Origin: Nitrospirae bacterium JdFR-86 | Lineage (GTDB): Bacteria; Nitrospirota; Thermodesulfovibrionia; Thermodesulfovibrionales; JdFR-86 | Length of the DNA: 64,000 nucleotides | Assembly (NCBI GenBank): GCA_002011815.1 | Contig: MTOV01000015.1 | Location: 1,405-65,404 of the forward strand | Reading direction: 5' to 3' | Shown: in pieces, positions 1,613-64,000 of the stretch | Layout of the letters: every line of letters starts with the position of its first letter | How positions within the stretch are numbered: position 1 is the stretch's first letter | Position numbers and translations under genes: made by a program | Notes under the pieces: generated by a model | Database searches by the model: none | The model's input: the letters and a program-made list of their open reading frames with translations, nothing else | Told to the model about the DNA's origin: nothing

Positions 1613-2896
1613 ATGGAACTGTTTGAAAACGACGCTGCAATCCCGGCTAAAAAAGGGACTGTGTCCCCTGAGAAAGGGACCATGTCCCCGCTTGCATACA
1701 GGATGTGTCCTGAAACTCTTGATGAATATGTAGGGCAGGAGCATATCCTTGGTGAAGGCAAGCTCTTAAGAAGGGCGATAGAGGCGGACAGGGTGTCCTC
1801 GATAATACTTTATGGTCCGCCGGGCACAGGAAAGACCGCACTTGCAAGGGTTATCGCAAAAAAGACAAAGGCATCTTTTAACTGGCTTAATGCAGCAACC
1901 ACAGGACTTGAAGACCTGAGAAAGGTTATAAAGCAGGCAAGAGCAGATGCCTTAAAAGGCATAAAGACCATACTCTTTCTGGATGAAATCCACAGGTTTA
2001 ACAAACTCCAGCAGGACGCACTTCTTCCTGATGTTGAAGAAGGCAATATTATTCTGATAGCCGCTACTGTTGAAAACCCGTTCTTTTATGTAAACTCTGC
2101 ATTGATTTCAAGAAGCCAGATATTCGAACTCAAGCCTCTTACAAAAGAACATCTGCTTACGATACTTAAGCGTGCGCTTGAAGACAAAGAAAAAGGGCTC
2201 GGCAAACTCAATCTCTCTGTTACGGATGATGCACTTGAGCACCTTGCAGTCATGGCAGACGGTGATGCAAGAAGGGCGCTTTCCGCACTTGAGATTGCTG
2301 CACTTACCACACCGCCTGACAGGCAAGGGAAGATAGTTATAACAAAAGGCATTGCAGAGGAGTCAATACAGAAGAAAGCAGTGGTCTATGACAAAAAAGG
2401 CGACCAGCACTACGATACGATTTCTGCATTCATAAAGAGCATGAGGGGAGGAGACCCGGACGCCACTGTTTATTATCTTGCAAAGATGCTTTATGCAGGC
2501 GAAGACCCAAGGTTTATCGCAAGGCGCATAGTAATCTGCGCCTCAGAGGATGTAGGGAATAAAGACCCGATGGCACTTGTTGTGGCTACATCTGCATTAA
2601 GGGCAGTGGAGTTTGTAGGAATGCCTGAGGCACGCATCCCTCTTGCTCAGGCGGCAATCTATGTAGCCACTGCACCAAAAAGCAATGCCTCATACATGGC
2701 GATTGAAAAAGCTTTAAAAGATATAGAGGAAGAAGAGACAATGGAAGTGCCTGAACATCTGAAGGATAGTCATTACCGTGGTGCTGAAAAATTAGGCAGA
2801 GGCAAAGGCTACATATACCCGCACGACTACCCCGAAGGAACTGTAAAACAGGAGTATATTAAAAAGAAAAAGAAATATTATAAAGGGGAGAGGTAG
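1613..2896 (+). CDS. rarA: replication-associated recombination protein A (AAA ATPase RarA/MgsA)
   Basis: PLAYRMCPETLDEYVGQEHILG motif, Walker A GPPGTGKT, Walker B FLDEIHRFN, and the MgsA C-terminal region (GDPDATVYYLAKML...EDPRFIARR). Confidence 0.9.
   Translation: MELFENDAAIPAKKGTVSPEKGTMSPLAYRMCPETLDEYVGQEHILGEGKLLRRAIEADRVSSIILYGPPGTGKTALARVIAKKTKASFNWLNAATTGLEDLRKVIKQARADALKGIKTILFLDEIHRFNKLQQDALLPDVEEGNIILIAATVENPFFYVNSALISRSQIFELKPLTKEHLLTILKRALEDKEKGLGKLNLSVTDDALEHLAVMADGDARRALSALEIAALTTPPDRQGKIVITKGIAEESIQKKAVVYDKKGDQHYDTISAFIKSMRGGDPDATVYYLAKMLYAGEDPRFIARRIVICASEDVGNKDPMALVVATSALRAVEFVGMPEARIPLAQAAIYVATAPKSNASYMAIEKALKDIEEEETMEVPEHLKDSHYRGAEKLGRGKGYIYPHDYPEGTVKQEYIKKKKKYYKGER
1650..1691. 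repeat. two GGGAC-N3-GTCCC palindromes inside the rarA 5' coding region
   Basis: aaagGGGACtgtGTCCCct and aaagGGACcatGTCCCc lie 21 nt apart. The same motif pair occurs at 44335-44415. Confidence 0.6.
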
Positions 2897-2901
2897 CAAC
2901 T

Positions 2902-2948
2902 GAATTAATTCCAACTCGGTCGAAGCGACCTCAAACACGAATTAATTC
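2902..2948. repeat. 47-nt structured dispersed repeat, copy A
   Basis: A 9-bp outer stem GAATTAATT/AATTAATTC encloses a 29-nt conserved core, ccAACTCGGTCGaagCGACCTCAAACACG. Copy B at 56042-56088 has the same geometry with a different stem sequence. Confidence 0.55.
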
Positions 2949-3102
2949 TTAACGCTTTAACCTCCTTTGGGGTATAATGTGTTGGATTTGTTTAGGATTC
3001 AAGATATGGAAACTGTGAATTACTGTATAAAAAAAATATACTTTTTTTCATGCTGGCAAGGCTGGCTTTTAAAACATGTTGAATTTTAAAGGAAAATTTT
3101 TG

Positions 3103-49813: not shown

Positions 49814-51751
49814 ATGCCGCATAAAAAGGTATTGTTTATTACCCCGTCCTACCATTGCGGGGTTGTGGAAGTAGCCGGTCATTGGATTCCCCTTCAATTC
49901 GTCTATCTTGGCGGCGCTGTCAGGGAAGCAGGTTTTGAGCCGATTGTTTACGATGCCATGACAAAGCGGCATAGCCTTGAGACAATAGCAAAAAAGATTG
50001 CAGATGTAAATCCGGATTATGTCGCTACCACGGCAATCACCGCAACAGTGCTTGATGCGCTGGAGGTTCTAAGGGTTGCAAAGGAGATAAATCCGGATAT
50101 CATCACCATTATTGGAGGGGTGCATCCTACTTTTCTTTATGACGAGGTTCTTGAGAACAAATATGTTGATTATGTTGTAAGAGGAGAGGGGGAGGAGACC
50201 ATTAAAGAGCTGCTTTTAGCTCTGGAAGGAGGCAGGGGACTTGACCGTGTAAGGGGGATAGCATACAGGAGCGGACGGCAGGTTATAACCACGTCAGCAA
50301 GGCCTTTTATTCAGGACTTGGACGGGCTTTCTCCTGCGTGGGACTTAATCGACTGGAAGGATTACAGGTATTTCGTCATACCCCGCAGCCGGCTTGGAGC
50401 GGTAAGCACCTCAAGAGGCTGCAGTCATAACTGCGCCTTTTGTTCACAGCAGAAGTTCTGGCATCAGTCGTGGCGGGGAAGGCAGCCAGAAAGTGTGGTT
50501 AAAGAGCTGGAACATTTAACCAGGACTTACGGGGTCAATGTCTTTTTAATCCCTGATGAGCATCCTACACAGGACAGGGAGCGGTGGGAAAGACTTCTTG
50601 ACCTGCTTATAGAAAGGGACTTGGGCATATATCTCCTGATGGAGACAAGGGCGGAAGACATCGTAAGGGACAGGGATATCCTGTACAAGTATAGGAAGGC
50701 AGGGGTTGTCCATATCTACATAGGGGTTGAGGCGACAAGGCAGGAGACGCTTGACCTTATAAAAAAAGACATGAAGGTGGAGACCGGAGCAGAGGCAATA
50801 AGGCTTATTCACGAGCACGGTATGATTACCGAGACGAGCTTTATCTTAGGCTTTCCGGACGAGACGAAAAAATCGATAAGAAACACCCTCAGGCTTTCCA
50901 AGTTTTACAATCCGGATTTCGCACATTTTCTTGCACTGGCTCCATGGCCCTATGCCGATATGTTCAAAGAGCTTGAACCTTATATCGCAGTAAGAGATTA
51001 CAGGAAATACAATCTTATCGAGCCTGTCATCAAGCCTGAAAAGATGAGTATCAAGGCTGTGGACAAGGCAATCATTGACTGCTACCAGAGCTTTTACATG
51101 AGCAAGCTCAAAGAGATACTGTCAATGGAGGATGCCTTTAAGAGAGGCTATCTGCTACGTTCCATGAAATTGATAATGAGCAGCTCGTTTATTGTAGACA
51201 AACTTGGCTCGCTCGGCAGGATTCCGCCTCAGGTCAACGCACTGCTTAATAAGCTGGAGAAGGAGAAAGTGGCGGATGAAGGCGTGCCGCAGGACTCGAT
51301 GTCAGAAGTATCAAGGTCTGTAAAGATCAATGCACCCTTGGGAAAAGTTTTTGAATATGTTGTAAACCCTTTAAACTGGCCCAGTTATGTTATGAGCCTC
51401 GTAAGCGTGAAGAACCTCTCCAACAAGGTTCCTGTATCAGGCACTACGTTTGAGTGGACATACAGAATGCTCGGCCTGAATCTAAAAGGCAAGGGCAGGG
51501 TGCTTGAATACGAAAAGGACAAAAAGTTTGCAGTAAAGATGCATGGTGCATTTCCAATAATAGAGACGTTTCTGTTTGAAGGAGACTCTAAGGCAACAAG
51601 ATTGACCATTAAAATCAACTATGAAGTTCCCGGCAAGGTGCTTGGTGTTTTAGCTGACAAACTTCTCATAGAGAAGATAAATGCGAAAGAGGCAGAGACC
51701 GTGCTTAAAAAAATAAAGATGATTTGTGAAAGCGAAAGTGCTACCATGTAA
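49814..51751 (+). CDS. B12-binding-domain radical SAM enzyme fused to a C-terminal SRPBCC (START/polyketide-cyclase-like) domain
   Basis: N-terminal cobalamin-binding-like Rossmann region. CSHNCAFC (CxxxCxxC) radical SAM cluster. The C-terminal about 150 aa (VSRSVKINAPLGKVFEYVVNPLNWPSY...) is SRPBCC-like. Confidence 0.75.
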   Translation: MPHKKVLFITPSYHCGVVEVAGHWIPLQFVYLGGAVREAGFEPIVYDAMTKRHSLETIAKKIADVNPDYVATTAITATVLDALEVLRVAKEINPDIITIIGGVHPTFLYDEVLENKYVDYVVRGEGEETIKELLLALEGGRGLDRVRGIAYRSGRQVITTSARPFIQDLDGLSPAWDLIDWKDYRYFVIPRSRLGAVSTSRGCSHNCAFCSQQKFWHQSWRGRQPESVVKELEHLTRTYGVNVFLIPDEHPTQDRERWERLLDLLIERDLGIYLLMETRAEDIVRDRDILYKYRKAGVVHIYIGVEATRQETLDLIKKDMKVETGAEAIRLIHEHGMITETSFILGFPDETKKSIRNTLRLSKFYNPDFAHFLALAPWPYADMFKELEPYIAVRDYRKYNLIEPVIKPEKMSIKAVDKAIIDCYQSFYMSKLKEILSMEDAFKRGYLLRSMKLIMSSSFIVDKLGSLGRIPPQVNALLNKLEKEKVADEGVPQDSMSEVSRSVKINAPLGKVFEYVVNPLNWPSYVMSLVSVKNLSNKVPVSGTTFEWTYRMLGLNLKGKGRVLEYEKDKKFAVKMHGAFPIIETFLFEGDSKATRLTIKINYEVPGKVLGVLADKLLIEKINAKEAETVLKKIKMICESESATM

Positions 51752-51777
51752 ACCGAAAACCGTCATGGAGGTGGAAC

Positions 51778-52404
51778 GTGGAGCCGAAAAACCTGGATGT
51801 AAGAGGGCTTAAGTGTCCTGAGCCTCTAAAGAGGACTCAGGAGGAACTGGAATCAATAAAAGAAGGCGTTTTAGTTGTTCTTGCCGAAAGTCCTGCAAAT
51901 TTGAGCATAGAGAGGTTTTCAAGGAAGTCAGGGTTTAGGATCGAAAGCACCAAGCGCGAGGGCTACCACGAGCTTAAGATAATAAAGACTCCTCACAGCA
52001 AGCCGAAAAAAGAAGGCATCCTGCAGAGGCTTATGCGGTTTGTGAAGAGAAACAAACAGGTTGAGGGGTTGAATGATACGATGGTTGTGGTCTCAACGAA
52101 TGTGTTTGGAAGACACGAGGACATAGGCAGGGTGCTCATGAAAGGGTTTTTTGAGACGATGAAGGTTATGGGTGACATACCGGCTGTCATGTTTTTCATG
52201 AACTCAGGGGTTTTGCTTACTACAACGGATGAGGAGATAATTCCCCTGCTTAAAGAATTTGAGTCCGAGGGCGTGGAGATATACTCCTGCAGCACCTGTC
52301 TTAAGCACTTTAATCTTGAGGAAAGTCTAAAGGTCGGACAGGCAGGAGGCATGGCAGTGCTTACCGACGGAATGAGAACATATAAGAAAATTGTAACTAT
52401 ATAA
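51778..52404 (+). CDS. yedF: YedF-type selenium-metabolism protein (TusA/SirA-like N-domain + DsrE-like C-domain), copy 1
   Basis: GTG start after GGAGGTGG. The motif is GLKCPEP (CPxP) and the C-terminal motif is YSCSTCLKHF. Confidence 0.7.
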   Translation: MEPKNLDVRGLKCPEPLKRTQEELESIKEGVLVVLAESPANLSIERFSRKSGFRIESTKREGYHELKIIKTPHSKPKKEGILQRLMRFVKRNKQVEGLNDTMVVVSTNVFGRHEDIGRVLMKGFFETMKVMGDIPAVMFFMNSGVLLTTTDEEIIPLLKEFESEGVEIYSCSTCLKHFNLEESLKVGQAGGMAVLTDGMRTYKKIVTI

Positions 52405-52418
52405 GAGGTGTTGTTCTG

Positions 52419-53003
52419 ATGGTTATTGATGCACGGGGTCAGGCGTGCCCCAAGCCTGTGATGATGGCTGAAGAGGCGGTCTCTAAAATCGGAGAGGGCA
52501 TAGTCGAAGTACTCGTTGACAACGAAGCCTCGGTCAAAAACCTTTCGAGATTTGCAAAAAACAATGCCCTGTATGCAGAGACCGAAAAGGTAGATGACTA
52601 CTGGAAAGTCAAGATTGTCAAAGGCTATCCCTGCGAGATTGCAGAGGAAGAAGAAAAACCGTTGGTGGACAAAGGGGTTTTTCTTATCATCGGCACTGAT
52701 GTGATGGGCAAGGACGAAGACATCGGAAGGGTGCTCATGAAAGGCTTCTTTGAGACCATGAAGGTGACAAAGGAACTGCCGCAGTCCATATTCTTTTTGA
52801 ACAAAGGAGTGATGCTGACTACAACAGACACCGAAATTATTCCTGTACTCAAGGAGCTTGAGTACATGGGTGTTGAGATATACTCCTGCGGCACGTGTCT
52901 TAAGCACTACGGGCTTGAATCAGAGCTTAAAGTAGGCCACCGGGGCACGACAAATCACATAATTGAAGGGCTGAAAGAGTTTAAAAAGGTCGTATGGATT
53001 TAA
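52419..53003 (+). CDS. yedF: YedF-type selenium-metabolism protein, copy 2
   Basis: ARGQACPKPV (CPxP), GRVLMKGFFETMKV identical to copy 1, and YSCGTCLKHY. Confidence 0.75.
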   Translation: MVIDARGQACPKPVMMAEEAVSKIGEGIVEVLVDNEASVKNLSRFAKNNALYAETEKVDDYWKVKIVKGYPCEIAEEEEKPLVDKGVFLIIGTDVMGKDEDIGRVLMKGFFETMKVTKELPQSIFFLNKGVMLTTTDTEIIPVLKELEYMGVEIYSCGTCLKHYGLESELKVGHRGTTNHIIEGLKEFKKVVWI

Positions 53004-53120
53004 GGGCATATCCTGAAATCTGAAGCTTGTACCCTGCGGGATCCTCTCCGGCTTTTTCTGCATTAATAATTCTGGTATGTTAAAATGTATAAAAATTTTT
53101 TGTAAAGGAAGGTATCGGCT

Positions 53121-53906
53121 ATGTTTAACATGAAGGTAGTTCAACCCACGAGGCTTGACCCTGACACAAGGTTCAAGTTCAGATGTCATAAAGCGATTAA
53201 ATGTTTTACGCGTTGCTGCAGCAACATAGATATAATGCTTACGCCTTATGATGTCTTGAGGATGAAGAACAGGCTGGGGATTACATCAGAGGAGTTTCTT
53301 GACAAATACACAATAATGCGCATTGACCAGAAGTCTTCGCATCCTTATGCCTATCTCAGGATGGGGGATGATGCAGAGCGGAGGTGTCCGTTTGTCGTTG
53401 TGCCTGACGGCTGCACTATCTATTCTGACCGCCCTGTAAGCTGCAGATACTATCCGATAGGACAGGCTACTTTAAAGAAGCGTGAGAAAGGGGGCATTGT
53501 TCACGAAGAGTTTTATTTTTTTATAAGGGAAGAGCACTGCCTTGGCTATCAGGAAGACACAGAGTGGACCATAGAGTCATGGAGGGACGACCAGGGTGCA
53601 TTGCACTATGATGAGATGAACAGAGAGTGGAAAGAGCTTTTGATGAGGAGAAACCTTCCGGGACAGCCTGAGCTTGACCCGAAGAAGCAGACCCAGTTCT
53701 TCATGGCAAGCTATGACCTTGACCGGTTCAGAAGGTATATATTTGAAAGCAGGTTTCTTGAGTTGTTCGAGGTTGACGAGGATGAAGTCGAGAAGATGAG
53801 GCAGGATGAAGTCGCACTTATGAAGTTCGGGTTTAAGTATCTGAAGTATCTTATGATGATGGAGCAGACGCTGAAGCTGAAGGACGGGGTGCTGCCTAAG
53901 CAGTAA
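53121..53906 (+). CDS. YkgJ/UPF0153-type cysteine-cluster (CxxCxxCC) protein
   Basis: FRCHKAIKCFTRCC motif plus CPF...DGCTIY...RPVSCRYYP. Confidence 0.65.
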   Translation: MFNMKVVQPTRLDPDTRFKFRCHKAIKCFTRCCSNIDIMLTPYDVLRMKNRLGITSEEFLDKYTIMRIDQKSSHPYAYLRMGDDAERRCPFVVVPDGCTIYSDRPVSCRYYPIGQATLKKREKGGIVHEEFYFFIREEHCLGYQEDTEWTIESWRDDQGALHYDEMNREWKELLMRRNLPGQPELDPKKQTQFFMASYDLDRFRRYIFESRFLELFEVDEDEVEKMRQDEVALMKFGFKYLKYLMMMEQTLKLKDGVLPKQ

Positions 53907-54255
53907 TATCTAACTGGCTTTTAAGCCATTTCTCCAGTTCTTCGTCAATTGGATACATGTCCGCAATGGGTTTGACACCTTCTTTTTTGACCGCATTCAG
54001 GAGCAACTCCTGTGGAACGTCAACGATTTCGCCTATGGTTTTACTTGTCAGGTTGTAGGTTTTCATCACCATAAGGCTGGCGGTGTCATCTACATAGTCT
54101 ATATAGAACATGAAGCCCTGTGTTTCCTTTATGAGGTCGCGGTCTTTTTCAGAGTGCACAAATCTTGGTTTAAAGAGGTCTTGGGGAGTTACGTCCCACC
54201 TCAGGTGCTTCATAAAGACTTTGTTTTTCTTAAGCCTTGAGAGTTTGAGACGCAT
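53896..54255 (-). CDS. hypothetical protein
   Basis: 119-aa ORF with host-like composition, translationally close to the upstream 54262-54609 ORF. I recognised no motif. Confidence 0.4.
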   Translation of the reverse strand: MRLKLSRLKKNKVFMKHLRWDVTPQDLFKPRFVHSEKDRDLIKETQGFMFYIDYVDDTASLMVMKTYNLTSKTIGEIVDVPQELLLNAVKKEGVKPIADMYPIDEELEKWLKSQLDITA

Positions 54256-54261
54256 TTCTTC

Positions 54262-54609
54262 TTAAGCGTTTCCTATCTTACCGAGTGAAGATTTATATGC
54301 CTCGATTGCACTTTGCTCAACATCTTTCAGCATCTCCTCTTTTGCCCTTTCCAGCCGTTTTAGCGGCAGTCTCAGGGTTCTGGCCACTTTTTCCAGTGGT
54401 TTTTTCTCGCTGAAGTGCATCTCTGCAATCAAGACTTTCAATGCGTCATCGAGGATTGAATTTCTCAGCACCTCGTCTTCTATATCAATAAGTGCTGCTG
54501 CCTGCTCAAAAGAAAGCGACTGTTTAACCGCATTTCTAATCTTATTAACAGACTCTTCGTAAAGTTTGTCCTCTTCCGAGGCGGCTTCATCATACCATGG
54601 TTTTTCCAT
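54262..54609 (-). CDS. hypothetical acidic helical protein
   Basis: 115-aa ORF, predicted all-helical. Separated from atpE by a strong terminator. Confidence 0.4.
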   Translation of the reverse strand: MEKPWYDEAASEEDKLYEESVNKIRNAVKQSLSFEQAAALIDIEDEVLRNSILDDALKVLIAEMHFSEKKPLEKVARTLRLPLKRLERAKEEMLKDVEQSAIEAYKSSLGKIGNA

Positions 54610-54645
54610 TATTTTATTTTAACACCAACTCTTAATAAGATGAAA

Positions 54646-54667
54646 GGGCAGGGCATACGCCCTGCCC
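54646..54667 (-). terminator. rho-independent terminator after atpE
   Basis: GGGCAGGGC-atac-GCCCTGCCC, a 9-bp GC stem flanked by A/T runs on both sides. Confidence 0.8.
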
Positions 54668-54683
54668 TTTAAGGCGGAGTAAT

Positions 54684-55034
54684 TTAAATCTTGAAAGGAT
54701 TTGCGAATAAAACGATCAAAACCACGACGAGGGCGTAAATGCAAAGAGACTCAATCATCGCCAAGCCGACGATGAGAGTTGTCATGATTTTGCCGGATAC
54801 TCCTGGGTTTCTGGCTACGCCTTCGCATGCCCTACCAAGACCGAGGCCCTGCCCTATACCTGTGCCGAGTGCAGCAAAGCCTATACCGATACCGCAGCCT
54901 ATAACAGCCATGGCATAATAGCTAAGCTTTGCATCCGTTAATTCTGCCGCAGCCTCCTCTGTAGCAAATGCAAGAGGTGCCAGTACCCAGAGCATAATCA
55001 GTGAGAGAATAACAACTGCCAGTGCTTTTCTCAT
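54684..55034 (-). CDS. atpE: F0 ATP synthase subunit c with N-terminal signal-peptide-like extension
   Basis: [19 protein letters not shown] loop, ion-binding MIESLCIY helix, and N-terminal [24 protein letters not shown]. Confidence 0.9.
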
Positions 55035-55063
55035 TACTCCTTCCTCCTTTCTTAGTAAAATTC

Positions 55064-55747
55064 TCAGTGCGCCTCTTCAACAGCGCCTGCAAGATAAAGG
55101 GTCGCCAAAAGGGCGAAAACAAATGCCTGAACTAAACCGACGAGAACACCGAGTATCAGAATAGCCGTCGGAACGATAATAGGTGTCAGAATGCCTAAGA
55201 CAATAAGTATTATATGTTTTGCAATCATGTTACCAAAAAGCCTGACGGACAGGGTGACAGGTCTTGCAAGATGCCCTATCACTTCCACGAAGAACATCAG
55301 AATCATCAGCGGCAGTGCGGCAAGAGAACGCATCGGACCGAGGAAGTGTTTTATGTAGCCAAGCTTGTGAACTCTAATTCCATAAACGTGTGTTGCGAAA
55401 AACACAGGCACTGCCATCGAAGCCGTCATATTCAGATTGCTTGTCGGTGATGCAAAGCCTGGAACAAGCCCCATGAAGTTGCAAAGAAGGATGTACATGA
55501 AGATTGTGGCTATCAGGGGGAAGAATGTCCTTCCCCAGTGATGCCCGATGTTTTCCTCCGCCAGATTGAGCATTGCCTCTACTATTACCTCAAAGACGTT
55601 TTGCGTGCCTTTTGGAACGAGCTTGATAGAGCCTCTTATGATAATGGAAACGGCTATGAGGATTATAGACGCCAGGAATGCATAGGAAACGTAGTGAGGC
55701 ACTACTTCCGGATTAATAATTAAATCCATTAATGCTGACTCGTGCAT
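55064..55747 (-). CDS. atpB: F0 ATP synthase subunit a
   Basis: Conserved LSVRLFGNM arginine helix; polytopic; adjacent to atpE. Confidence 0.9.
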
Positions 55748-55935
55748 GTATGCCTCCTCGAATGAAAATTACACTATGTTACTTAAGATACCTATTAATG
55801 TCAAGAAATTGTCTTATAAAAAAAACAAATAGAGGGTACAGCCCTTTATTTTCTTTTAAATCAGAGACTGCCATACAAATTCAAATTTTAAAAGGCGCTT
55901 ATGCCTTTTTTCTTTTATGTCCGCTTCCTGAGATA

Positions 55936-55986
55936 TGGGGCTCTGCCCCAAGCCCATTGCTACTTTTTGCTCGCCCAAAAAGTAGC
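55936..55986. other. pair of strong hairpins in a non-coding region
   Basis: TGGGGC-tct-GCCCCA (55936-55950) and GCTACTTTTT-gctcgccc-AAAAAGTAGC (55959-55986). Confidence 0.5.
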
Positions 55987-56041
55987 GCAAAAAGGGCGCC
56001 CTGTGAAAATTTCCGGGCGGCTTACTCGCTCTGCCTCCGGT

Positions 56042-56088
56042 AAATTTCAGCAAACTCGGTCGGATCGACCTCAAACACGCTGAAATTT
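56042..56088. repeat. 47-nt structured dispersed repeat, copy B
   Basis: A 9-bp outer stem AAATTTCAG/CTGAAATTT encloses the 29-nt core caAACTCGGTCGgatCGACCTCAAACACG. Followed by TTAACCCTCC, as in copy A (TTAACCTCC). Confidence 0.55.
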
Positions 56089-56394
56089 TTAACCCTCCGG
56101 CAGACCTCGTAAGCCTGAAATTTTCAAATGGGTTAAAACAGGGATTATAACTGCCGTTTTCAAAGAGCAAACTTATACTATATGCCATTAGTTGCATGTC
56201 GCTATAAATACACTACAAATAGTTGAATTTTTGCAGAAAAGTTATTAGTATTAACTGCAATTTTTAAGGGAGCTTCTTTAGCAGGGAGATAGCGGGGAAA
56301 AGAATAGTAGTTATGGTGATAGACAATAGGGGGATAAGGTAATGGTGGTGAGGGAGTTAGGAGGATAAGATATTATTATTTTGAAAATAATTTT

Positions 56395-57711
56395 ATGGTG
56401 GAGAATACTTTGTTACATGTAGAAGCAAAGAAGGCTTTAAAAGGGCACTTAGAAAGAATTTTGAATAATTGTAAAGTGAATGAAGGTGTTATTGATTTTG
56501 ATGATGATATCTATAGAGATATTTACAGTTATGTAAATGAGACAAAAAAGCATAAAAAAGTATGGATGCGTGATATAGACATACTTGGCGTCTTATACAA
56601 ACAAGTTTCAAATTATTTGAGTGAACATATCAAAAATTATTGGGAAACCTCGGGAGAATTAAAAAACATTATTGGGAATAAAACTATTAAAAGCTTATGT
56701 AGTAGAATTATTTCTTATTTAGAGTCCATTCCTAGAGATTATTTTGTCTTTTTTGAACTTCCTTATGTACGAGGAATAGGCGTAAAAGAAATAAGTTTAA
56801 CAAATAATATTTCATTTATAGAAGTAATTAATGATAATGATTTTTCTGAGGTTAGTGTTCCATACAATATAAGTATACCAAGGACAGGCGCTCTTGCCAT
56901 GGGGCTTTTGGGCAGTCCCCATGGTTATAAACTCAAAAAGGGACGATTGTATGTTCGTATCCAAGCTGATGGATATGCAGATGGGACATTAGAGAGTAGC
57001 GCAATAAAGAAGGCATACTCAAGATTCAAACAGGTAATTTTCCTTTCTAAATTATCAGGAGTGCTTACAGAAGGAAATGTAAAGACCTCGTCATCTAGAT
57101 TCCCTGATACAACTCCACAAGTGTATGCAATCTATGCCAAAGAACCAAGTACTGAAAAATATGGTTTTAACCTCCCTGAAACAGTATATGGCTATATATC
57201 AAGGCTTAGCATCAATGAAGATAGCTTAAAACCTACTAAATTAGAAATTTTTGCGGAATCGTTCGAAAATAAAGAATCCTTAACTCCAAAAGATAAAGCT
57301 AAAATTCTTAAAAACCGTCTTCACTATCCTATTAAATTATTGCAAACCTCTGAGGATGATAAAATCACTGAGCCGATAAAAACTGCGATTGAATGGGCTC
57401 TTGATTCACTTACTAATGACAATAATACATTTGCTTTTTTACAAGCATGTATAGGACTTGAAGCGATATTAGGAGATAACAATACTCGAGAAAAGCTGAC
57501 TGAAACTTTGGCAGACCGATGCGCTTATTTACTAGGAAACAGTATTCATACAAGAAGAGAGATAAGAAAAAAATTTGTGAAATTATATCGTAGCCGTTCT
57601 AAACTTATTCATGGCAGGAAAGCAATCTTAGGTAACGAAGAGCTTGGCTTATTAAGGTATGCTCAAAATATATTGAGTCGAATTATTTTGAAAGAAATTT
57701 CCTATATTTAA
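56395..57711 (+). CDS. AT-rich orphan protein with a C-terminal HEPN-like domain (Rx4H motif)
   Basis: Long ORF in a region that is visibly much more AT-rich than its flanks. The C-terminal helical region contains LYRSRSKLIHG (R-x4-H at 57595-57612). The N-terminal about 320 aa have no motif I recognise. Confidence 0.6.
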   Translation: MVENTLLHVEAKKALKGHLERILNNCKVNEGVIDFDDDIYRDIYSYVNETKKHKKVWMRDIDILGVLYKQVSNYLSEHIKNYWETSGELKNIIGNKTIKSLCSRIISYLESIPRDYFVFFELPYVRGIGVKEISLTNNISFIEVINDNDFSEVSVPYNISIPRTGALAMGLLGSPHGYKLKKGRLYVRIQADGYADGTLESSAIKKAYSRFKQVIFLSKLSGVLTEGNVKTSSSRFPDTTPQVYAIYAKEPSTEKYGFNLPETVYGYISRLSINEDSLKPTKLEIFAESFENKESLTPKDKAKILKNRLHYPIKLLQTSEDDKITEPIKTAIEWALDSLTNDNNTFAFLQACIGLEAILGDNNTREKLTETLADRCAYLLGNSIHTRREIRKKFVKLYRSRSKLIHGRKAILGNEELGLLRYAQNILSRIILKEISYI

Positions 57712-57784
57712 TGAGGGTTATAATTTGCAACCCCCTTATACAACCCCCTTACAATAGAAAAACAAATAGGACTTAAGGGAAAGG

Positions 57785-58636
57785 CTATGGTTTCTTTTTT
57801 GTAGCCACCACAATCCTCTCAATCCCTGCGTAATCCTTTATAACGCTTAAAGGCTCAAATTGGAAGCTGCGGACGATGTGTGTTATATCCTCTGCCTGTC
57901 CTTCACCTGCCTCTACGATTATCAGCCCTTTGGGTTTCAGATGCCGGGCTGCCTGCGAGAAGATTTCCCTGTAGAAATAAAGTCCGTCCTTACCTCCGTC
58001 GAGTGCGTCTTTGGGCTCCCAGTCCCTTATCTCAGGCTGAAGGCTCTGGATGTCTCCGGATTTTATATAAGGCGGGTTTGAGACGATTATGTCGAATATC
58101 ATGTCTTTTACAGGCTCAAACAGCGAGCCGTGCAGGAAAGTCACGTTTTTTATGCTGTTTATTCGTGCGTTTTCTTCTGCGTATTTGAGGGCTTTTTCCG
58201 AGGGGTCAGTGCCGTAGAGTTCTGCCATAGGCAGGTTTTTTGCCAGAGCAAGAGCGATTGCACCGCTTCCTGTGCAGAGGTCTATGATTCGGATTGGTGA
58301 ATTCCTGTCTGCTCTTTTCAGGGTTTCTTCAACGAGCAGTTCGGTCTCAGGTCTGGGGATGAGGACGCCCTGCCCCACATTTATCTTTAAGCCGTAGAAG
58401 TCAACGTAGCCGATTATATACTGAAGGGGCTCGCGCTTTGTCCTGCGCCGGAGTATTTCATTGAGTTTTTCTGTTTCAGCTTTACTGAGTGTGGGGTTGT
58501 CCCTGTAAAGTGAGACCCTGTCTATGCCGATGCCTTCGGTGATGATGAGTTCTGCTTCTTTTTCCGCCTGAGGTATGCCGTGCTTTTTCAGGAAAAGGGC
58601 GCAATGGCGCAGCAGGTCAAGGGCGTGCTCTGTCAT
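57785..58636 (-). CDS. prmC: release factor glutamine N5-methyltransferase
   Basis: [13 protein letters not shown] motif and NPPY catalytic motif. Overlaps the prfA 3' end. Confidence 0.9.
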
Positions 58637-59702
58637 TTCTGTCGATTTCTTTTAGTTTTTCTGTTTGATAGTGGGTATGAAGGGCGTCTATTATCTCATC
58701 GAGGTTTCCTTCGAGCACTTCCTCGAGCTTGTGGAGGGTTAGTCCTATTCTGTGGTCTGTGACTCTGTTCTGGGGGAAATTATATGTTCTGATTCTTTCG
58801 CTCCGGTCGCCTGTGCCGACCTGTAGCCTCCGTTCCTGCGCCCTTTGTCTTTCCTGAGCCTCCATCTCAATCTCATAGAGTCTTGAGCGCAGGACTTTCA
58901 TGGCTTTTTCCTTGTTTTTTATCTGAGACCTTTCGTCCTGACACTGAACGGTTATGCCTGTAGGAATATGCACTATTCTTACTGCCGAGTATGTGGTATT
59001 GACTCCCTGCCCGCCTGGTCCTGAGGCGCAGAAGGTATCTATTCTAAGGTCTTTCTCGTCTATTTTTATGTCTATGTCTTCTGCCTCTGGAAGCACGGCT
59101 ACTGTAGCCGCTGATGTATGAATCCTGCCTGATGCCTCTGTAAGGGGCACTCGCTGGACTCTGTGGACTCCGCTTTCGTATTTAAGCCTGCTGTAAGCAC
59201 CCTTGCCCTCGATGCTTACTATGGTTTCCTTTATGCCTCCAAGCCCTGTGGGACTGGACGCTATGGTATCTACTTTCCATTTTTTGGATTCTGCATATTT
59301 TGCATACATCCTGAAGAGTTCTGCTGCAAAGAGCGCTGCCTCTTCGCCTCCTGTGCCTGCCCTTATCTCCAGTATTACGCTTCTTTCGTCCCTTGGGTCT
59401 TTTGGTATGAGCATGAGCTTCAGCTGTTGCTCAAGTACGGGTTTTTTCTCTTTAAGTTCGTTAAGTTCTGCCTGTGCGAGTTCTTTAAGGTCGGCATCGC
59501 CGGAGCGGAGAAGCTCCTCTGCCTCTTCCATGTCATTCAGGAGCTTTTTGTATTCTGAGATTTTCTCCACCAGAGGAACGAGCTCTGCCTGTTCCTTTGA
59601 GTATTTCTGATACTCCTGTGGGTTTGAAAGGACATCAGGCTGCATGAGCAACTGAGTCAATTCCTCGTATCTTTCCTCTATGGTCTTCAGTTTATCGAGC
59701 AT
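58617..59702 (-). CDS. prfA: peptide chain release factor 1
   Basis: GGQ motif ([11 protein letters not shown]) and a PxT-type anticodon tripeptide context (RVQRVPLTE). Confidence 0.95.
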
Positions 59703-60576
59703 TGGTTTGTTCTGCCTCCAGCGAAAGCACCTCGGTGAGTGCCCTGATGGCTACCTGTATCTGTGCATCGTCCGGCTCGCGGGTCGTAAGCTTTTGAAGA
59801 AGAAGTCCGGGAAGGACAATCGCCCTGACAAAAGGGTTTTTCATTCTGGCTGAAAGCCTCAGTGCCTCATACGAGATGCCTGCAATCAACGGTATAAGGA
59901 CAATCCTTATAAGAAACTTATGTATGAGCGCCCACGACTGCGGAATAAATGAAAAAACAAGTATGCTTATTACCATTACTATAAGAAGAAAGCTCGTTCC
60001 GCATCTTGGATGAAGCGGACTCAGTTCCCTTACGCTTTCCACATCAAGTTCCTTGCCTTTCTCATATGCATGTATTGCCTTATGCTCTGCACCGTGATAC
60101 TCGAATATCCTTCTCATCTCGCCCCATAACCCTATAAGGACTATATAAAGAAGAAACATGGCGACTCTTACAACCCCGTCTACGAGATTAAACAGCAACG
60201 GGCTCTGAGCCACAGAAGGCAGAAGCAGTCCAATGAGCTTTGTCGCATAAAGCGGAACCGCTATGAACAGGACAATGCCGAGCGATATAGCCAATCCGAT
60301 AGTAAGTGCTATGGCAGTGCGGCTAAGGGGTTTTTCTTCCTCTTCGTCGTATGCCTTGCTTGCTGAAAATTCAAGCGCTTTTATCCCGATTACGAGGGCG
60401 TGAAAGAGCGCAACTATCCCCCTTATCAGGGGAAGTTTCAGTATCTTCGGAAGTTCAAAAAGTGTTTCTTTTTTCACGTGAATTTCCCCCTTTGGGTCTC
60501 TGACTGCGACCGTCCACCCTTTAGGTGATTTCATCATCACTCCTTCTATAACTGCCTGTCCGCCAATGGTTTTCAT
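59692..60576 (-). CDS. DUF1385-family membrane protein
   Basis: [13 protein letters not shown]-terminus and EYHGAEHK motif. Typical position between rpmE and prfA. Confidence 0.8.
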
Positions 60577-60642
60577 AAAAATATAATAAAAAAAGCCGTT
60601 AGCCTTGGTGACCGAGACTAACGACTTGCCAATTGATGTGTT

Positions 60643-60849
60643 CTATTTATTTTTCTTTGCGTATTTCTTTTTGAACTTTTCGACTCTGCCTTCAGTGTCG
60701 ACTATTTTCTGCTTGCCTGTGAAGAACGGATGACAGCTTGAGCATATATCTACGTGTATCTTCGGCTTTGTAGACCTTGTGACGAAGCTTTCGCCGCATG
60801 CACATACGACTTTTGCCTCTTTGTATTCAGGGTGAATGCCTTGTTTCAA
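60643..60849 (-). CDS. rpmE: 50S ribosomal protein L31
   Basis: MKQGIHPEY..., CxC...CSSCHPF zinc motif. The TTG at 60849 lies 7 nt after GGAGGG and is preferred to the ORF-track start at 60864. Confidence 0.9.
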
Positions 60850-61011
60850 CTTGATTCCCTCCAATTTTTAGGATTTCAAACTCTTATTATAAAAGATTCC
60901 TGCCTTTTTCGCAATGAGTGGATAGGTCTGTTTTTCCATCGCTGTTTTCAATAGCAGGGAAAATCACGACCATGCATAGAAAAGAACTCAAACCCCTGCT
61001 ACAATTAGGCT

Positions 61012-61503
61012 ATGCCGAGGGGGTTTACCGTCATAGAAGTCGTAGTCATAATGGTCATTATTGCGATACTGGCTGCGGTTGCGCTTACAAGGTTTTCCTC
61101 TTTTGAGACTATAAAACTTAACGGTGCTGTAAGGAAGATCGTTTCAGACATAAGGTATACCCGAAAGTTAGCTATATCCACACAAAAAAGAGCCGGGCTG
61201 ACATTTAATACAAACGGCTACAGTGTTTATGAGGACATAACAGTTCCCACTCTGGCGGAAAGTCCTGGTGAGCCGTGCTCTACGGATTCTTCGAATAAGT
61301 TTGTTGTTGATTTTACAGCGGACAGGTGCAGCAGTTACGAAGGGGTGACTTTGAGCTATTCTGCGGCGACTGTGGCATTTGATTCCTTGGGCAGCCCTGT
61401 GGATGCCTCAGGCTCTCCTCTGGACACGCAGACTGTTACTGTAACCCTGAACATTGCAAAAACCATAACCATAGAAGCCGGCACAGGGAGGGTAGGCTAT
61501 TGA
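61012..61503 (+). CDS. prepilin-type N-terminal methylation-domain pseudopilin (GspH-like)
   Basis: MPRG/FTVIEVVVIMVIIAILAAVA, a class III signal peptide with Glu+5. Confidence 0.75.
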   Translation: MPRGFTVIEVVVIMVIIAILAAVALTRFSSFETIKLNGAVRKIVSDIRYTRKLAISTQKRAGLTFNTNGYSVYEDITVPTLAESPGEPCSTDSSNKFVVDFTADRCSSYEGVTLSYSAATVAFDSLGSPVDASGSPLDTQTVTVTLNIAKTITIEAGTGRVGY

Positions 61504-61979
61504 AAACCCAGGGGTTTACTCTTATCGAAACGGTCATGATAATTGTCGTGGCTTCGGTGGCGATACCGGTTTTAATCATGGCTCTTGGCAGGCAGGCAAG
61601 GCTGGGTATGGATGCCGAGCTTCAGGTGGCAGCTTTGAATTTAGGGCAAGCGCTTATGGAAGAGATAGTATCCAAGAGATGGGATGAGACCCCTGGCTCT
61701 TACTCAAGCGTTCTCGGTCCTGAAGGCGAGGAAAGCAGGACTCAGTGCACAGGCACTTCGGCAACACCGTTTGATGATGTAGATGACTACAACGGCTATT
61801 CAGAAACGTGCACGCTCGGCGGAGTCGAATACACAAAGACCGTTACTGTCTGCTATGTTCAGTCCACAGACCTTGATGCCTGTCAGGGCAGCACTACGGA
61901 CTATAAACGCATAAAGGTGACGGTTTCTACTGACCGTCTCGGCTCTATGGAACTTGTAACTCTGGCAGTCAATTACTAA
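61500..61979 (+). CDS. pseudopilin (GspI-like)
   Basis: MKTQG/FTLIETVMIIVV signal; overlapping stop/start with neighbours. Confidence 0.7.
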   Translation: MKTQGFTLIETVMIIVVASVAIPVLIMALGRQARLGMDAELQVAALNLGQALMEEIVSKRWDETPGSYSSVLGPEGEESRTQCTGTSATPFDDVDDYNGYSETCTLGGVEYTKTVTVCYVQSTDLDACQGSTTDYKRIKVTVSTDRLGSMELVTLAVNY

Positions 61980-61980
61980 T

Positions 61981-62490
61981 ATGCAAGGGAAAAACGGTTT
62001 TACACTTATCGAACTCACGCTGGCAATAGTTATTACAGCCATTCTGGCGGTTGTGATAGGCAGTGCGCTTTCAGAAGGTGTAAGGGCATACCTTAAGACA
62101 GACAACCGCAATGAGGCACTTGAAGAGGCACGCACTGCTATTGAAAGGCTTTCAAAAGAGATAAGAAACGGCACTCAGATTGCTACTGCTACCTCTACTG
62201 TGCTGTGCTTTGCTGATGCAGACGGCAATACTGTAAGCTTCAGGTATGAAGGCGGAAATAACATTATATTGAGGGAGGCGATAGCAACCGGCATCGGGGG
62301 CTGTCCTGGCACAGGAGGTAACACTCTTGCAGCAAACATCACGAGTTTTAGTTTCTCGTATATACAGAATTCAGGTGCTTCTGACCCTTCTCCACCTTCT
62401 AATACAAAGCGGATAAGAGTTTCACTTACAGCTACGGTTTCGGATGAAAGCGTTGAGCTTCAGACAGAAATCCATCCAAGGGGGCTTTGA
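61981..62490 (+). CDS. pseudopilin (GspJ-like)
   Basis: MQGKNG/FTLIELTLAIVI signal. Confidence 0.7.
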   Translation: MQGKNGFTLIELTLAIVITAILAVVIGSALSEGVRAYLKTDNRNEALEEARTAIERLSKEIRNGTQIATATSTVLCFADADGNTVSFRYEGGNNIILREAIATGIGGCPGTGGNTLAANITSFSFSYIQNSGASDPSPPSNTKRIRVSLTATVSDESVELQTEIHPRGL

Positions 62491-63365
62491 TGAGGCAAGC
62501 AGGCGTTTCAGTGATAGGTGCTGTACTTGCTTTGCTGATTCTTTCGGTGCTTGTTGCAGTCAGTGTATCACTTGTAACAACAGGTGGAAGGTCAGGGCTT
62601 TATGAAGAGCAGGGGGGCAAGGCGTTTTATATTGCCGAGGGAGGGCTTCAATACAGTCTGCCTCAGGTCAAGAACTCGCCTTCATACTCAGGTGACACTG
62701 ACAAACCACTTGGAGAAGGCGCATTCACTGTTACGGTTTCAAGTGGTCCTGGGGTTGGGCAGAGAACAATAAGCTCTACGGGTAAGATTACATACGGCAC
62801 ATTTACAACGCAGAGAATTGTAAACGCCGTGGTGCAGGGCGGAGAGGCAATCACCGACGGTGGTTTTACTGACCTGGCAAACTGGCCTGACGGCGACTGC
62901 AAGCCGAACAGGAATCAGGGGACAGTCTCTATTGTGGACGGGGCACTGAGCATTGCCACAAACGCTGCCAGGAAGCAGTCCATGAAGGACTGCAGACAGC
63001 AGAGCCTTGCTGTCCCTATCCCGCCAGCAACAGATGTAACTTTATCATTGAGATATTATTTTTCCTCAACGCACACATGCAGCGATGAATCCGAGAAGAC
63101 CACAGCCAAGTGCGAGATGTCCGTAATCTTTGTTTATTCCGACGGAAGCGAGGAGGAACCGTGGACAAACTCTGATTATCCGACCTCCTGGGCATCCACA
63201 GGTGACATATCGTGGACTACGAAGGCAGACGTTAATCTGACGGATATAAAGCTTTTTTATGATATCAAGAGCGCTAATGCAAAGAATGCGCAGACAACAG
63301 GCTGGCTTGATGATGTCTCGCTTACATCCCCGTTTGTTGTTACCAGTATAAAGGAAAGCTTTTAA
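62487..63365 (+). CDS. large minor pseudopilin-like protein (GspK/PilX-like), degenerate signal
   Basis: N-terminal hydrophobic helix (GVSVIGAVLALLILSVLVAV) without the canonical GFTLIE. Last gene of the pseudopilin operon. Confidence 0.5.
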   Translation: MMRQAGVSVIGAVLALLILSVLVAVSVSLVTTGGRSGLYEEQGGKAFYIAEGGLQYSLPQVKNSPSYSGDTDKPLGEGAFTVTVSSGPGVGQRTISSTGKITYGTFTTQRIVNAVVQGGEAITDGGFTDLANWPDGDCKPNRNQGTVSIVDGALSIATNAARKQSMKDCRQQSLAVPIPPATDVTLSLRYYFSSTHTCSDESEKTTAKCEMSVIFVYSDGSEEEPWTNSDYPTSWASTGDISWTTKADVNLTDIKLFYDIKSANAKNAQTTGWLDDVSLTSPFVVTSIKESF

Positions 63366-63383
63366 ATGGGATCAGTCGCCATA

Positions 63384-63677
63384 TCAGCGGAGAGTTATTT
63401 TCCCTGTCTCAGGGTCGTAATCATACTTGTCAGGGTTCAGTTCTATGCCTGTAAAGGCTGCTATTTCGTCAAGGCTTTCCGGATACTTCCCGTTTGAGGC
63501 GTAATAGGCAGCAATAGAGCGCTTTATAGTGTCGAGGTTTGCGGCATCAGCCGCCTCTTTTGACATTTCATATGAATCTATGAGTGCATCTCCGTACTCT
63601 TCAACAGGACTTTCTTTGCAGGCGGAAATAAGGGATAAAAGAAACAGAACGGACAAAACAAAGAAAATTCTTTTCAT
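63384..63677 (-). CDS. small lipoprotein with a pseudopilin-G-like globular domain
   Basis: Lipobox LSLISAC. Mature part includes IKRSIAAYYASNGKYPESLDEI...YDYDPETGKI. Confidence 0.5.
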   Translation of the reverse strand: MKRIFFVLSVLFLLSLISACKESPVEEYGDALIDSYEMSKEAADAANLDTIKRSIAAYYASNGKYPESLDEIAAFTGIELNPDKYDYDPETGKITLR

Positions 63678-63687
63678 CAGTTGCCCT

Positions 63688-64000
63688 TCAGTATTCTATC
63701 CCTTTTCTTGCCTTTATGCCTTTTTGGAAAGGGTGCTTGACCGTTTTCATCTCTGTTACATAGTCGGCGAGTTGCTTGAGTCTTTCAGTTGCGCCTCTGC
63801 CTGTAAGTATGAGTTCGACTTCTTCTGGTTTTTCTTTTAGAAATGTAACAGCCTCTTCCTCTGTGATAAGCTCTTCAGGCAGTAGGCAGTTGAATTCATC
63901 GAGCACAGCGAGGTCGAACTGATTAAGCATGCTTTTTATGGATTGCAGTGCATTTCTGGCTTGTTCCTGCAGGAGGTTTTTGTCAATGTTTGGGTGAAAA
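63688..64000 (-). CDS. cobO: cob(I)yrinic acid a,c-diamide adenosyltransferase (CobO/BtuR-type), 5' part beyond the window
   Basis: LDEFN...ELILTGRGA...YVTEMKTVKHPFQKGIKARKGIEY C-terminus. The frame stays open to the window edge. Confidence 0.75.
   Translation of the reverse strand, partial: FHPNIDKNLLQEQARNALQSIKSMLNQFDLAVLDEFNCLLPEELITEEEAVTFLKEKPEEVELILTGRGATERLKQLADYVTEMKTVKHPFQKGIKARKGIEY

Follow-up and report, generated by a model that had tools for sequence, protein, structure and literature searches.

The genomic region considered here is a 64,000-nucleotide (nt) stretch of contig MTOV01000015.1 from Nitrospirae bacterium JdFR-86, referred to below as the window. It carries an AT-rich gene for a protein of 438 amino acids (aa) that ends in an HEPN-like domain. 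The gene lies between two minus-strand genes identified by Pfam as atpB (ATP-synt_A, 55064-55747) and prmC (PrmC_N and MTS, 57785-58636). Its parts and the features that surround it are listed in Table 1.

The open reading frame (ORF) of this gene has a G+C content (GC) of 0.326 and a GC at third codon positions (GC3) of 0.241, against 0.463 +/- 0.022 and 0.483 +/- 0.043 for the window's remaining 51 ORFs of 150 aa or more. With z-scores of -6.3 for GC and -5.7 for GC3, it is the sole compositional outlier of the window. Its most used codons are AAA, GAA, ATT, AAT and TTA, and the windowed GC, about 0.47 in the flanks, drops sharply to 0.27-0.39 between about 56150 and 57800. An earlier note on this DNA had described an abrupt switch to AT-rich DNA dominated by the codons AAA, AAT, ATT and TTA, carrying a single 438-aa ORF between atpB and prmC that lacks a Shine-Dalgarno sequence. 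The composition and the gene with its two neighbours are confirmed by these data, and the last point is true for the ATG start, which has no Shine-Dalgarno sequence ahead of it (the closest GGAGG lies 32 nt before it). The same ORF has an alternative start, the TTG at 56410, which does follow a properly spaced GGTGGAG and is the start retained in the gene call of the source (P0001, 433 aa). In an alignment of 47 diverse family members (down to about 25% identity), also used below for all statements on conservation, the ATG fits the N-termini of the homologues better than this TTG, and the Shine-Dalgarno sequence is also missing in the closest homologues. A small upstream ORF or antitoxin gene was rejected, no plus-strand ORF of at least 20 aa being found in 56084-56394, and two ORFs of the gap, 55856-56197 (minus strand) and 55732-56043 (plus strand), are unsupported and were taken as spurious.

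Table 1. Features of the atpB-prmC region, in positions of the window
Feature	Positions	Strand	Basis or remark
Complete ORF, 438 aa, no family annotation	56395..57711	+	ORF list; family from homologue searches; AlphaFold2 model
N-terminal alpha/beta domain, residues 1-295	56395..57279	+	AlphaFold2 secondary structure, conservation
All-helical HEPN-like C-terminal domain, residues 296-438	57280..57708	+	Domain model, Foldseek, phrog_28161, P0363 link
E356 codon, candidate HEPN helix-2 acidic residue, motif CIGLEAILG	57460..57462	+	Conservation, AlphaFold2
R401-S-K-L-I-H406 codons, predicted catalytic Rx4H	57595..57612	+	Conservation, HEPN definition
Compositionally foreign AT-rich segment, core	56300..57784	.	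GC; dip starts at about 56130-56150
Travelling unit, leader of about 95 nt plus ORF	56300..57711	+	DNA alignable with homologue loci of other genomes
Conserved non-coding block upstream of the ORF, core AAGGTAATGGTGGTGAGGGA at 56336-56355	56300..56357	+	Alignment with L002, L075, L078, L081, L082
12-nt perfect direct repeat AAAAACAAATAG, left copy	55821..55832	+	Overlaps terminator-like hairpin
12-nt perfect direct repeat AAAAACAAATAG, right copy	57758..57769	+	16 nt from prmC stop
atpB promoter-like site TTGACA-17-TAACAT	55776..55804	-	Outside foreign segment

The 438-aa gene is horizontally acquired. The PrmC of the window falls in Thermodesulfovibrionia (Nitrospirota), its closest species representatives sharing 50-56% PrmC identity, and the order rpmE-DUF1385-prfA-prmC is kept across this clade, the 438-aa gene being present in none of the 66 related loci. 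One relative, L019, has an empty prmC-atpB junction: about 120 nt, including a TTGACT-17-TACTAT promoter, separate the two genes, and the same gap measures 2,037 nt in the window. This distribution in sister genomes agrees with the foreign origin suggested in the earlier note. The promoter-like site of atpB is not part of the foreign segment, so that atpB retains a promoter of its own. At the DNA level, blastn aligns the locus with L002 (68.8% from 56330) and L081 (66.8% from 56316); no match to other loci was obtained past the stop codon of the gene.

The two copies of AAAAACAAATAG bracket the atpB-prmC gap, and a repeat of this length was reached by only 16-48 of 5,000 shuffles (0.3-1%). They could be a target-site duplication or an att remnant; this is kept as a possibility, because the left copy overlaps a native-looking hairpin. 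There is no tRNA or tmRNA gene in 50000-64000, and so no classical integration target. An Rfam scan of 54500-58500 at E<=1 returned sub-threshold noise only, and no mobility gene is left in the window.

The gene is not the orphan that it was initially taken for. A word-indexed search led to the identification of 100 full-length homologues of about 410-460 aa, with identities down to 26%, all labelled "hypothetical" and none with a Pfam domain. An exhaustive search of representatives of 50%-identity clusters returned at least 1,504 of them at E<=1e-3, 718 at E<=1e-10 and 138 at E<=1e-30. Homologues come from Nitrospinae, Burkholderiaceae, Gammaproteobacteria, Methylomonas and Brocadiaceae, among others, and the RefSeq or source names of some members are "HEPN domain-containing protein" or "Apea-like HEPN". 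The 438-aa protein itself has no match in Pfam or NCBIfam, nor among PDB sequences, whether searched as a single sequence or as a profile, and the literature searched holds no mention of the accessions of the enterobacterial members described below. A database search with the C-terminal domain alone returned mostly fragments of the same family and so brought no alternative architectures to light. The protein thus belongs to a large, widely distributed and unannotated family with a patchy spread over several phyla.

Within this family, the gene behaves as mobile cargo. Among the 53 homologue loci with sufficient flank, 50 have a gene GC below that of the flanks; the median difference is -8.7 points, and the most extreme reaches -37. 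No conserved partner gene emerged when 150 neighbours at about 39 loci were surveyed, and a minority of these neighbours are related to mobility or defence (two integrases, two DNA methylases, XhoI, a YobI ATPase, three 23S_rRNA_IVP and one ApeA). About seven of the 12 loci that were viewed closely are clearly mobile or defence settings. For example, one member is accompanied by an integrase, HigB and an Eco57I-type methylase, another by a transposase and a third by RadC, DUF4942 and Hypoth_Ymh. In L159 (3090-6300), the family member is surrounded by a row of three tyrosine-recombinase genes and by genes for Fic, a YhcG-like nuclease and a KAP NTPase; this is a mobile element of the recombinase-trio type. 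In L090, a true ApeA (PF18862 and PF18739; 382-1770) lies directly upstream of the family member (1794-3047) on the same strand, so that two distinct genes for single-protein HEPN or HEPN-like products are neighbours.

Full-length members (hhalign 99.9-100%) are also found on Klebsiella and Cronobacter plasmids of about 100-110 kb (L155 and L156). These records are typed as non-mobilizable plasmids, and they encode a tail fibre, tail proteins, a DnaB-like helicase and a primase, which identifies them as phage-plasmids. In both genera, the gene occupies the same slot, as a lone opposite-strand gene between a partition (ParA/MipZ-like) ATPase and the tail-fibre module. In E. coli PCN033 (L157, 3650-15398), the full-length member WP_000544521.1 is carried by an element of about 11.6 kb located between ydiL and ydiK and bounded by two copies of the small RNA gene rprA. 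This element, which looks like an integration into rprA, also holds an integrase fragment, a primase-helicase, an AAA ATPase, a helix-turn-helix protein and a tail tape-measure fragment.

The AlphaFold2 model of the full protein, built with the 47-member alignment, is confident, with a predicted local distance difference test score (pLDDT) of 90.7 and a predicted template modelling score of 0.90; the C-terminal domain modelled alone reaches a pLDDT of 93.8. The core helices of this domain are 326-340, 344-359, 368-380, 384-405 and 414-437. It carries a very strongly conserved block, AIEWAFDS...FIQxCIGLEAILGD...LADRCAYLLG...R..IR..F..LY..RSKLVHGR, in which A331, W334, E356, G360, L372, R375, Y378, R387, Y398, R401, S402, H406 and G407 are invariant in the 47 members, and the R and H of the motif stay invariant in 30 more divergent C-terminal domains. 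In the window, the motif reads LYRSRSKLIHG; R401 is encoded at 57595-57597 and H406 at 57610-57612.

HEPN domains were defined by, among other features, a conserved Rx4-6H motif in which the residue right after the R is polar, mostly N, D or H, and by another conserved residue, acidic and located in helix 2, typically as part of Ex3[KR] (Anantharaman et al. 2013, PMC3710099). R401-x4-H406 has the spacing of this motif and the invariant S402 is polar. In the predicted, not solved, structure, helix 384-405 ends with R401-S402 near its terminus and H406 opens the loop that precedes helix 414-437, a placement that agrees with the same definition, and the invariant E356 sits in helix 344-359. The earlier note had proposed that the C-terminal 120 aa or so are helical with an R-x4-H at the position typical of HEPN domains, and both the invariance of the motif and its place in the model support this.

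Comparison of folds supports this less strongly, and the evidence from sequence profiles is indirect. When the C-terminal domain alone was submitted to Foldseek, three HEPN entries (2hsb, 4nqf and 8xeh_B) headed 187 weak matches by TM-score or probability, all with E-values above 0.6; 2hsb gave a probability of 0.80, TM-scores of 0.57/0.64 and a root-mean-square deviation of 3.6 A over 125 columns, and 4nqf a TM-score of 0.46. With the full-length model, no significant match to PDB or BFVD was found and 2hsb ranked 20th. phrog_28161 matches the domain at E=4.7e-4. A profile of the domain retrieves the homologue P0363 at E=5.7e-7, which hhalign aligns to it at 97.8% with all motifs in register, and P0363 in turn matches Pfam HEPN_Apea (PF18739) over the half that contains Rx4H (E=4.3e-4, 21.1 bits, under the cut-off of 24.4). 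The domain is judged likely to have the HEPN fold.

Among the closest known HEPN systems is ApeA, which Gao and co-workers are said to have described in 2020 as a single-protein abortive-infection system. ApeA cleaves tRNA anticodons, forms an oligomer, has a ligand pocket between its HEPN and N-terminal domains and has predominantly helical N and Mid domains (bioRxiv 10.64898/2026.01.26.701840). Both proteins are single proteins of about 440-460 aa without partner gene, and both have a C-terminal HEPN or HEPN-like domain behind an N-terminal region of about 290 aa, although these regions have no detectable homology. They share a layout of two motifs, ...G/A-LE-A/T... followed by ...[ST]R[SN]x-L-x-H..., CIGLEA aligning on AQGLET, and P0363, with its match to PF18739 at E=4e-4, bridges them. 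However, neither the 438-aa protein nor the 47 members match PF18862 or PF18739 at threshold, ApeA has an insert of about 70 aa ahead of its Rx4H, its motif is RNxLTH (RNYLTH) instead of RSKLxHG, and the N-terminal domain is predicted to be alpha/beta here. Membership of ApeA was rejected, given a profile-profile probability below 1.3% and the absence of any PF18862, PF18739 or PADLOC ApeA match.

DARNA is another single-protein HEPN tRNA nuclease acting by abortive infection; what activates it is single-stranded DNA (ssDNA) bound by the single-stranded DNA-binding protein of the phage (SSB), and its HEPN domain (residues 1-159) is followed by an all-helical Pds5-like C-terminal domain (bioRxiv 10.64898/2026.02.22.705581). 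It is a polypeptide of about 450 aa joining a catalytic HEPN domain to a large non-catalytic sensing domain, a combination also proposed for the protein of the window. However, the HEPN or HEPN-like domain is N-terminal in DARNA and C-terminal here, the other domain is all-helical in DARNA and alpha/beta here, and no sequence or PADLOC match links DARNA to the 438-aa protein; the opposite domain order rejects membership. The best structural matches of the C-terminal domain are the minimal HEPN toxins (HepT/MntA, and HEPN-T such as AF_0298, PDB 2hsb), which likewise have their Rx4H at the end of helix 3, whereas the 438-aa protein has a large fused N-terminal domain. The 2hsb family typically lacks the H of the Rx4-6H motif (PMC3710099). 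No MNT (minimal nucleotidyltransferase) antitoxin gene is adjacent in the window, and the 25 commonest of 98 neighbour families include no nucleotidyltransferase. A HepT/MntA (HEPN-MNT) module was rejected, the neighbours being atpB and prmC.

The N-terminal two-thirds of the protein are moderately conserved. Two motifs stand out, SIPRxY...LP at about residues 110-122, in which P113 is invariant, and GYxxG...SKFKQ, in which G193 and S209 are invariant and K212 nearly so. As expected from the earlier note, in which the N-terminal 320 aa or so matched nothing recognisable, this domain has no match in Pfam, NCBIfam, PHROGs, PDB sequences, PDB folds or BFVD. It is proposed, by analogy, to be a sensor or regulatory domain.

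The balance of this evidence tilts modestly towards a horizontally acquired cargo gene encoding a single-protein HEPN-type ribonuclease effector. As a family, the members are best read as new single-protein HEPN-type abortive-infection nucleases, whose role in defence would follow from their likeness to characterised systems. The suggestion in the earlier note that this could be an undescribed defence gene is, in this light, a reasonable one. From what is known of HEPN biology, R401, S402 and H406, with E356, would give the C-terminal domain of four or five helices an RNase site that works without metal and is probably made up jointly by the two halves of a dimer. ApeA and DARNA suggest, by analogy, that the alpha/beta domain of about 295 aa would hold the nuclease off until an infection-associated cue is sensed. 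Activation would lead to the cutting of cellular RNA, growth arrest and abortive infection; the RNA cut by these two characterised analogues is tRNA, in the anticodon loops. It is also possible, but can only be put forward tentatively, that the family is an undescribed single-gene anti-phage system, in which an N-terminal domain of new fold would respond to a new kind of infection signal and control a divergent HEPN RNase, and that it has spread horizontally over at least four phyla and enterobacterial phage-plasmids.

Several observations weigh against the effector reading. S402 is outside the usual set of N, D or H after the motif R, and E356 does not begin an Ex3[K/R] motif, position +4 being G360. 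No Pfam HEPN model matches the 438-aa protein, the 47 members or the enterobacterial members, all Foldseek E-values exceed 0.6, and small helical bundles match promiscuously. The HEPN fold announced in the earlier note is supported only in part, by the TM-scores and probabilities, for which HEPN entries are the best matches, and by the sub-threshold HEPN_Apea match of P0363, and not by Pfam HEPN models or by any significant Foldseek E-value. Compared by hhalign with an ApeA profile built from 42 relatives of the true ApeA found beside a family member, the family scores 0.4% as whole proteins, 1.2% when only the HEPN regions are aligned and 0.2% when only the N-terminal regions are. No system of PADLOC-DB v2.0.0 recognises the 438-aa protein or the enterobacterial members. 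The family is nearly missing from virus collections, with three loci in IMG/VR and none in INPHARED. Lastly, in about five of the 12 closely viewed loci, including the window, the gene is solitary among housekeeping genes, so that the association with defence islands is modest. The PADLOC matches are at noise level (RT_UG19, E=0.0027 over 96 aa; PDC-S05; PDC-S39). RT_UG19, which concerns the N-terminal 96 aa, was rejected: the protein lacks the motifs and the fold of a reverse transcriptase, and the match is not reproduced by other members.

Among the other explanations, one keeps the HEPN-like nuclease and changes its beneficiary: it could serve the mobile element that carries it, by superinfection exclusion, competition between elements or addiction, the copy of the window being the stranded remnant of such an element. 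The members found as morons in Klebsiella and Cronobacter phage-plasmids and in the integrated element of E. coli, the integrases or transposases present at several loci and the 12-nt direct repeat that brackets the gap here are all in its favour. However, exclusion encoded by a prophage is defence in practice and hard to tell from defence of the host, no antitoxin-like partner is available for an addiction module, and many copies are solitary among housekeeping genes; this explanation is considered unlikely.

Less likely still, the C-terminal domain could be a helical bundle that merely holds an R-x4-H and has another activity, such as the binding of a nucleotide or ligand, or an effector function other than that of a nuclease. 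This would account for the lack of a significant profile or fold match to any HEPN, for the S that replaces N, D or H after the motif R and for a link to PF18739 that stays under the curated cut-off. However, the R, S, H and G of the motif and the upstream E are invariant down to about 25% identity, three HEPN entries lead the weak Foldseek matches and independent source annotations name members HEPN. That the protein processes RNA for the host, as a housekeeping or regulatory enzyme whose gene is AT-rich by chance and has no role in conflict, is very improbable in spite of the translation and energy genes on either side and of the housekeeping surroundings of about five of the 12 loci, as the gene is absent from all 66 related loci and from the one relative that keeps the prmC-atpB junction, has a foreign composition in 50 of 53 loci, is patchy across phyla with variable neighbours and is found in only four of 5,426 E. 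coli genomes.

In the single-protein HEPN nucleases ApeA and DARNA, a sensor fused to a suicide RNase reads infection via deoxydinucleotides or SSB-bound ssDNA. The family described here would follow the same logic, yet with a putative sensor domain for which no match among known structures exists, in more than 1,500 sequence clusters that are invisible to Pfam and PADLOC. Its members occur in tractable hosts, such as E. coli PCN033 and the hosts of the Klebsiella and Cronobacter phage-plasmids. A role in defence would provide bacterial immunity with a new trigger-recognition module and clinically relevant phage-plasmids with a new accessory function. Without such a role, this would still be a widespread unannotated domain family worth a Pfam entry.

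The DNA upstream of the gene is itself conserved. In the window and in L002, L075-78, L081 and L082, the purine-rich leader block is about 85% conserved, against about 68% for the coding DNA. Its core AAGGTAATGGTGGTGAGGGA occurs once in the window and is restricted to seven loci of the closest subfamily, lying in each of them 37-60 nt ahead of the start codon. A structured leader RNA was rejected, no stable fold being predicted (z = 0.39), and the block is a putative promoter or operator.

Downstream, in 57712-57784, where the HEPN-like gene and prmC converge, a scan detected no terminator from the 3' end of the former to the stop codon of the latter. The first terminator-like hairpin on the read-through path from prmC (55811-55851) is 1.9 kb further, just before the atpB promoter, where the bidirectional terminator-like hairpin of 55827-55851 lies just upstream of the promoter-like site of atpB. 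Given this outcome of the scan, transcripts from prfA-prmC may read through the whole HEPN-like gene in antisense and may thus give antisense RNA over it.

Other repeats were observed in the window. A motif of about 44 nt (AACTCGGTCGnAnCGACCTCAAACACG...TTAAC), with a small GGTCG/CGACC hairpin, is present at 56053-56096 and at 2913-2956; both copies are intergenic and 53 kb apart, and the motif may be a dispersed element of the host genome resembling repetitive extragenic palindromic (REP) sequences. The first copy lies in a stretch of normal GC (55930-56120) that also holds four spaced GAAATTT repeats. Furthermore, a 67-nt direct repeat with 82% identity (52100-52166 and 52699-52765, 599 nt apart) is located in or beside a TusA/DsrE-like gene (52419-53003), which suggests tandem paralogous sulfur-relay domains.

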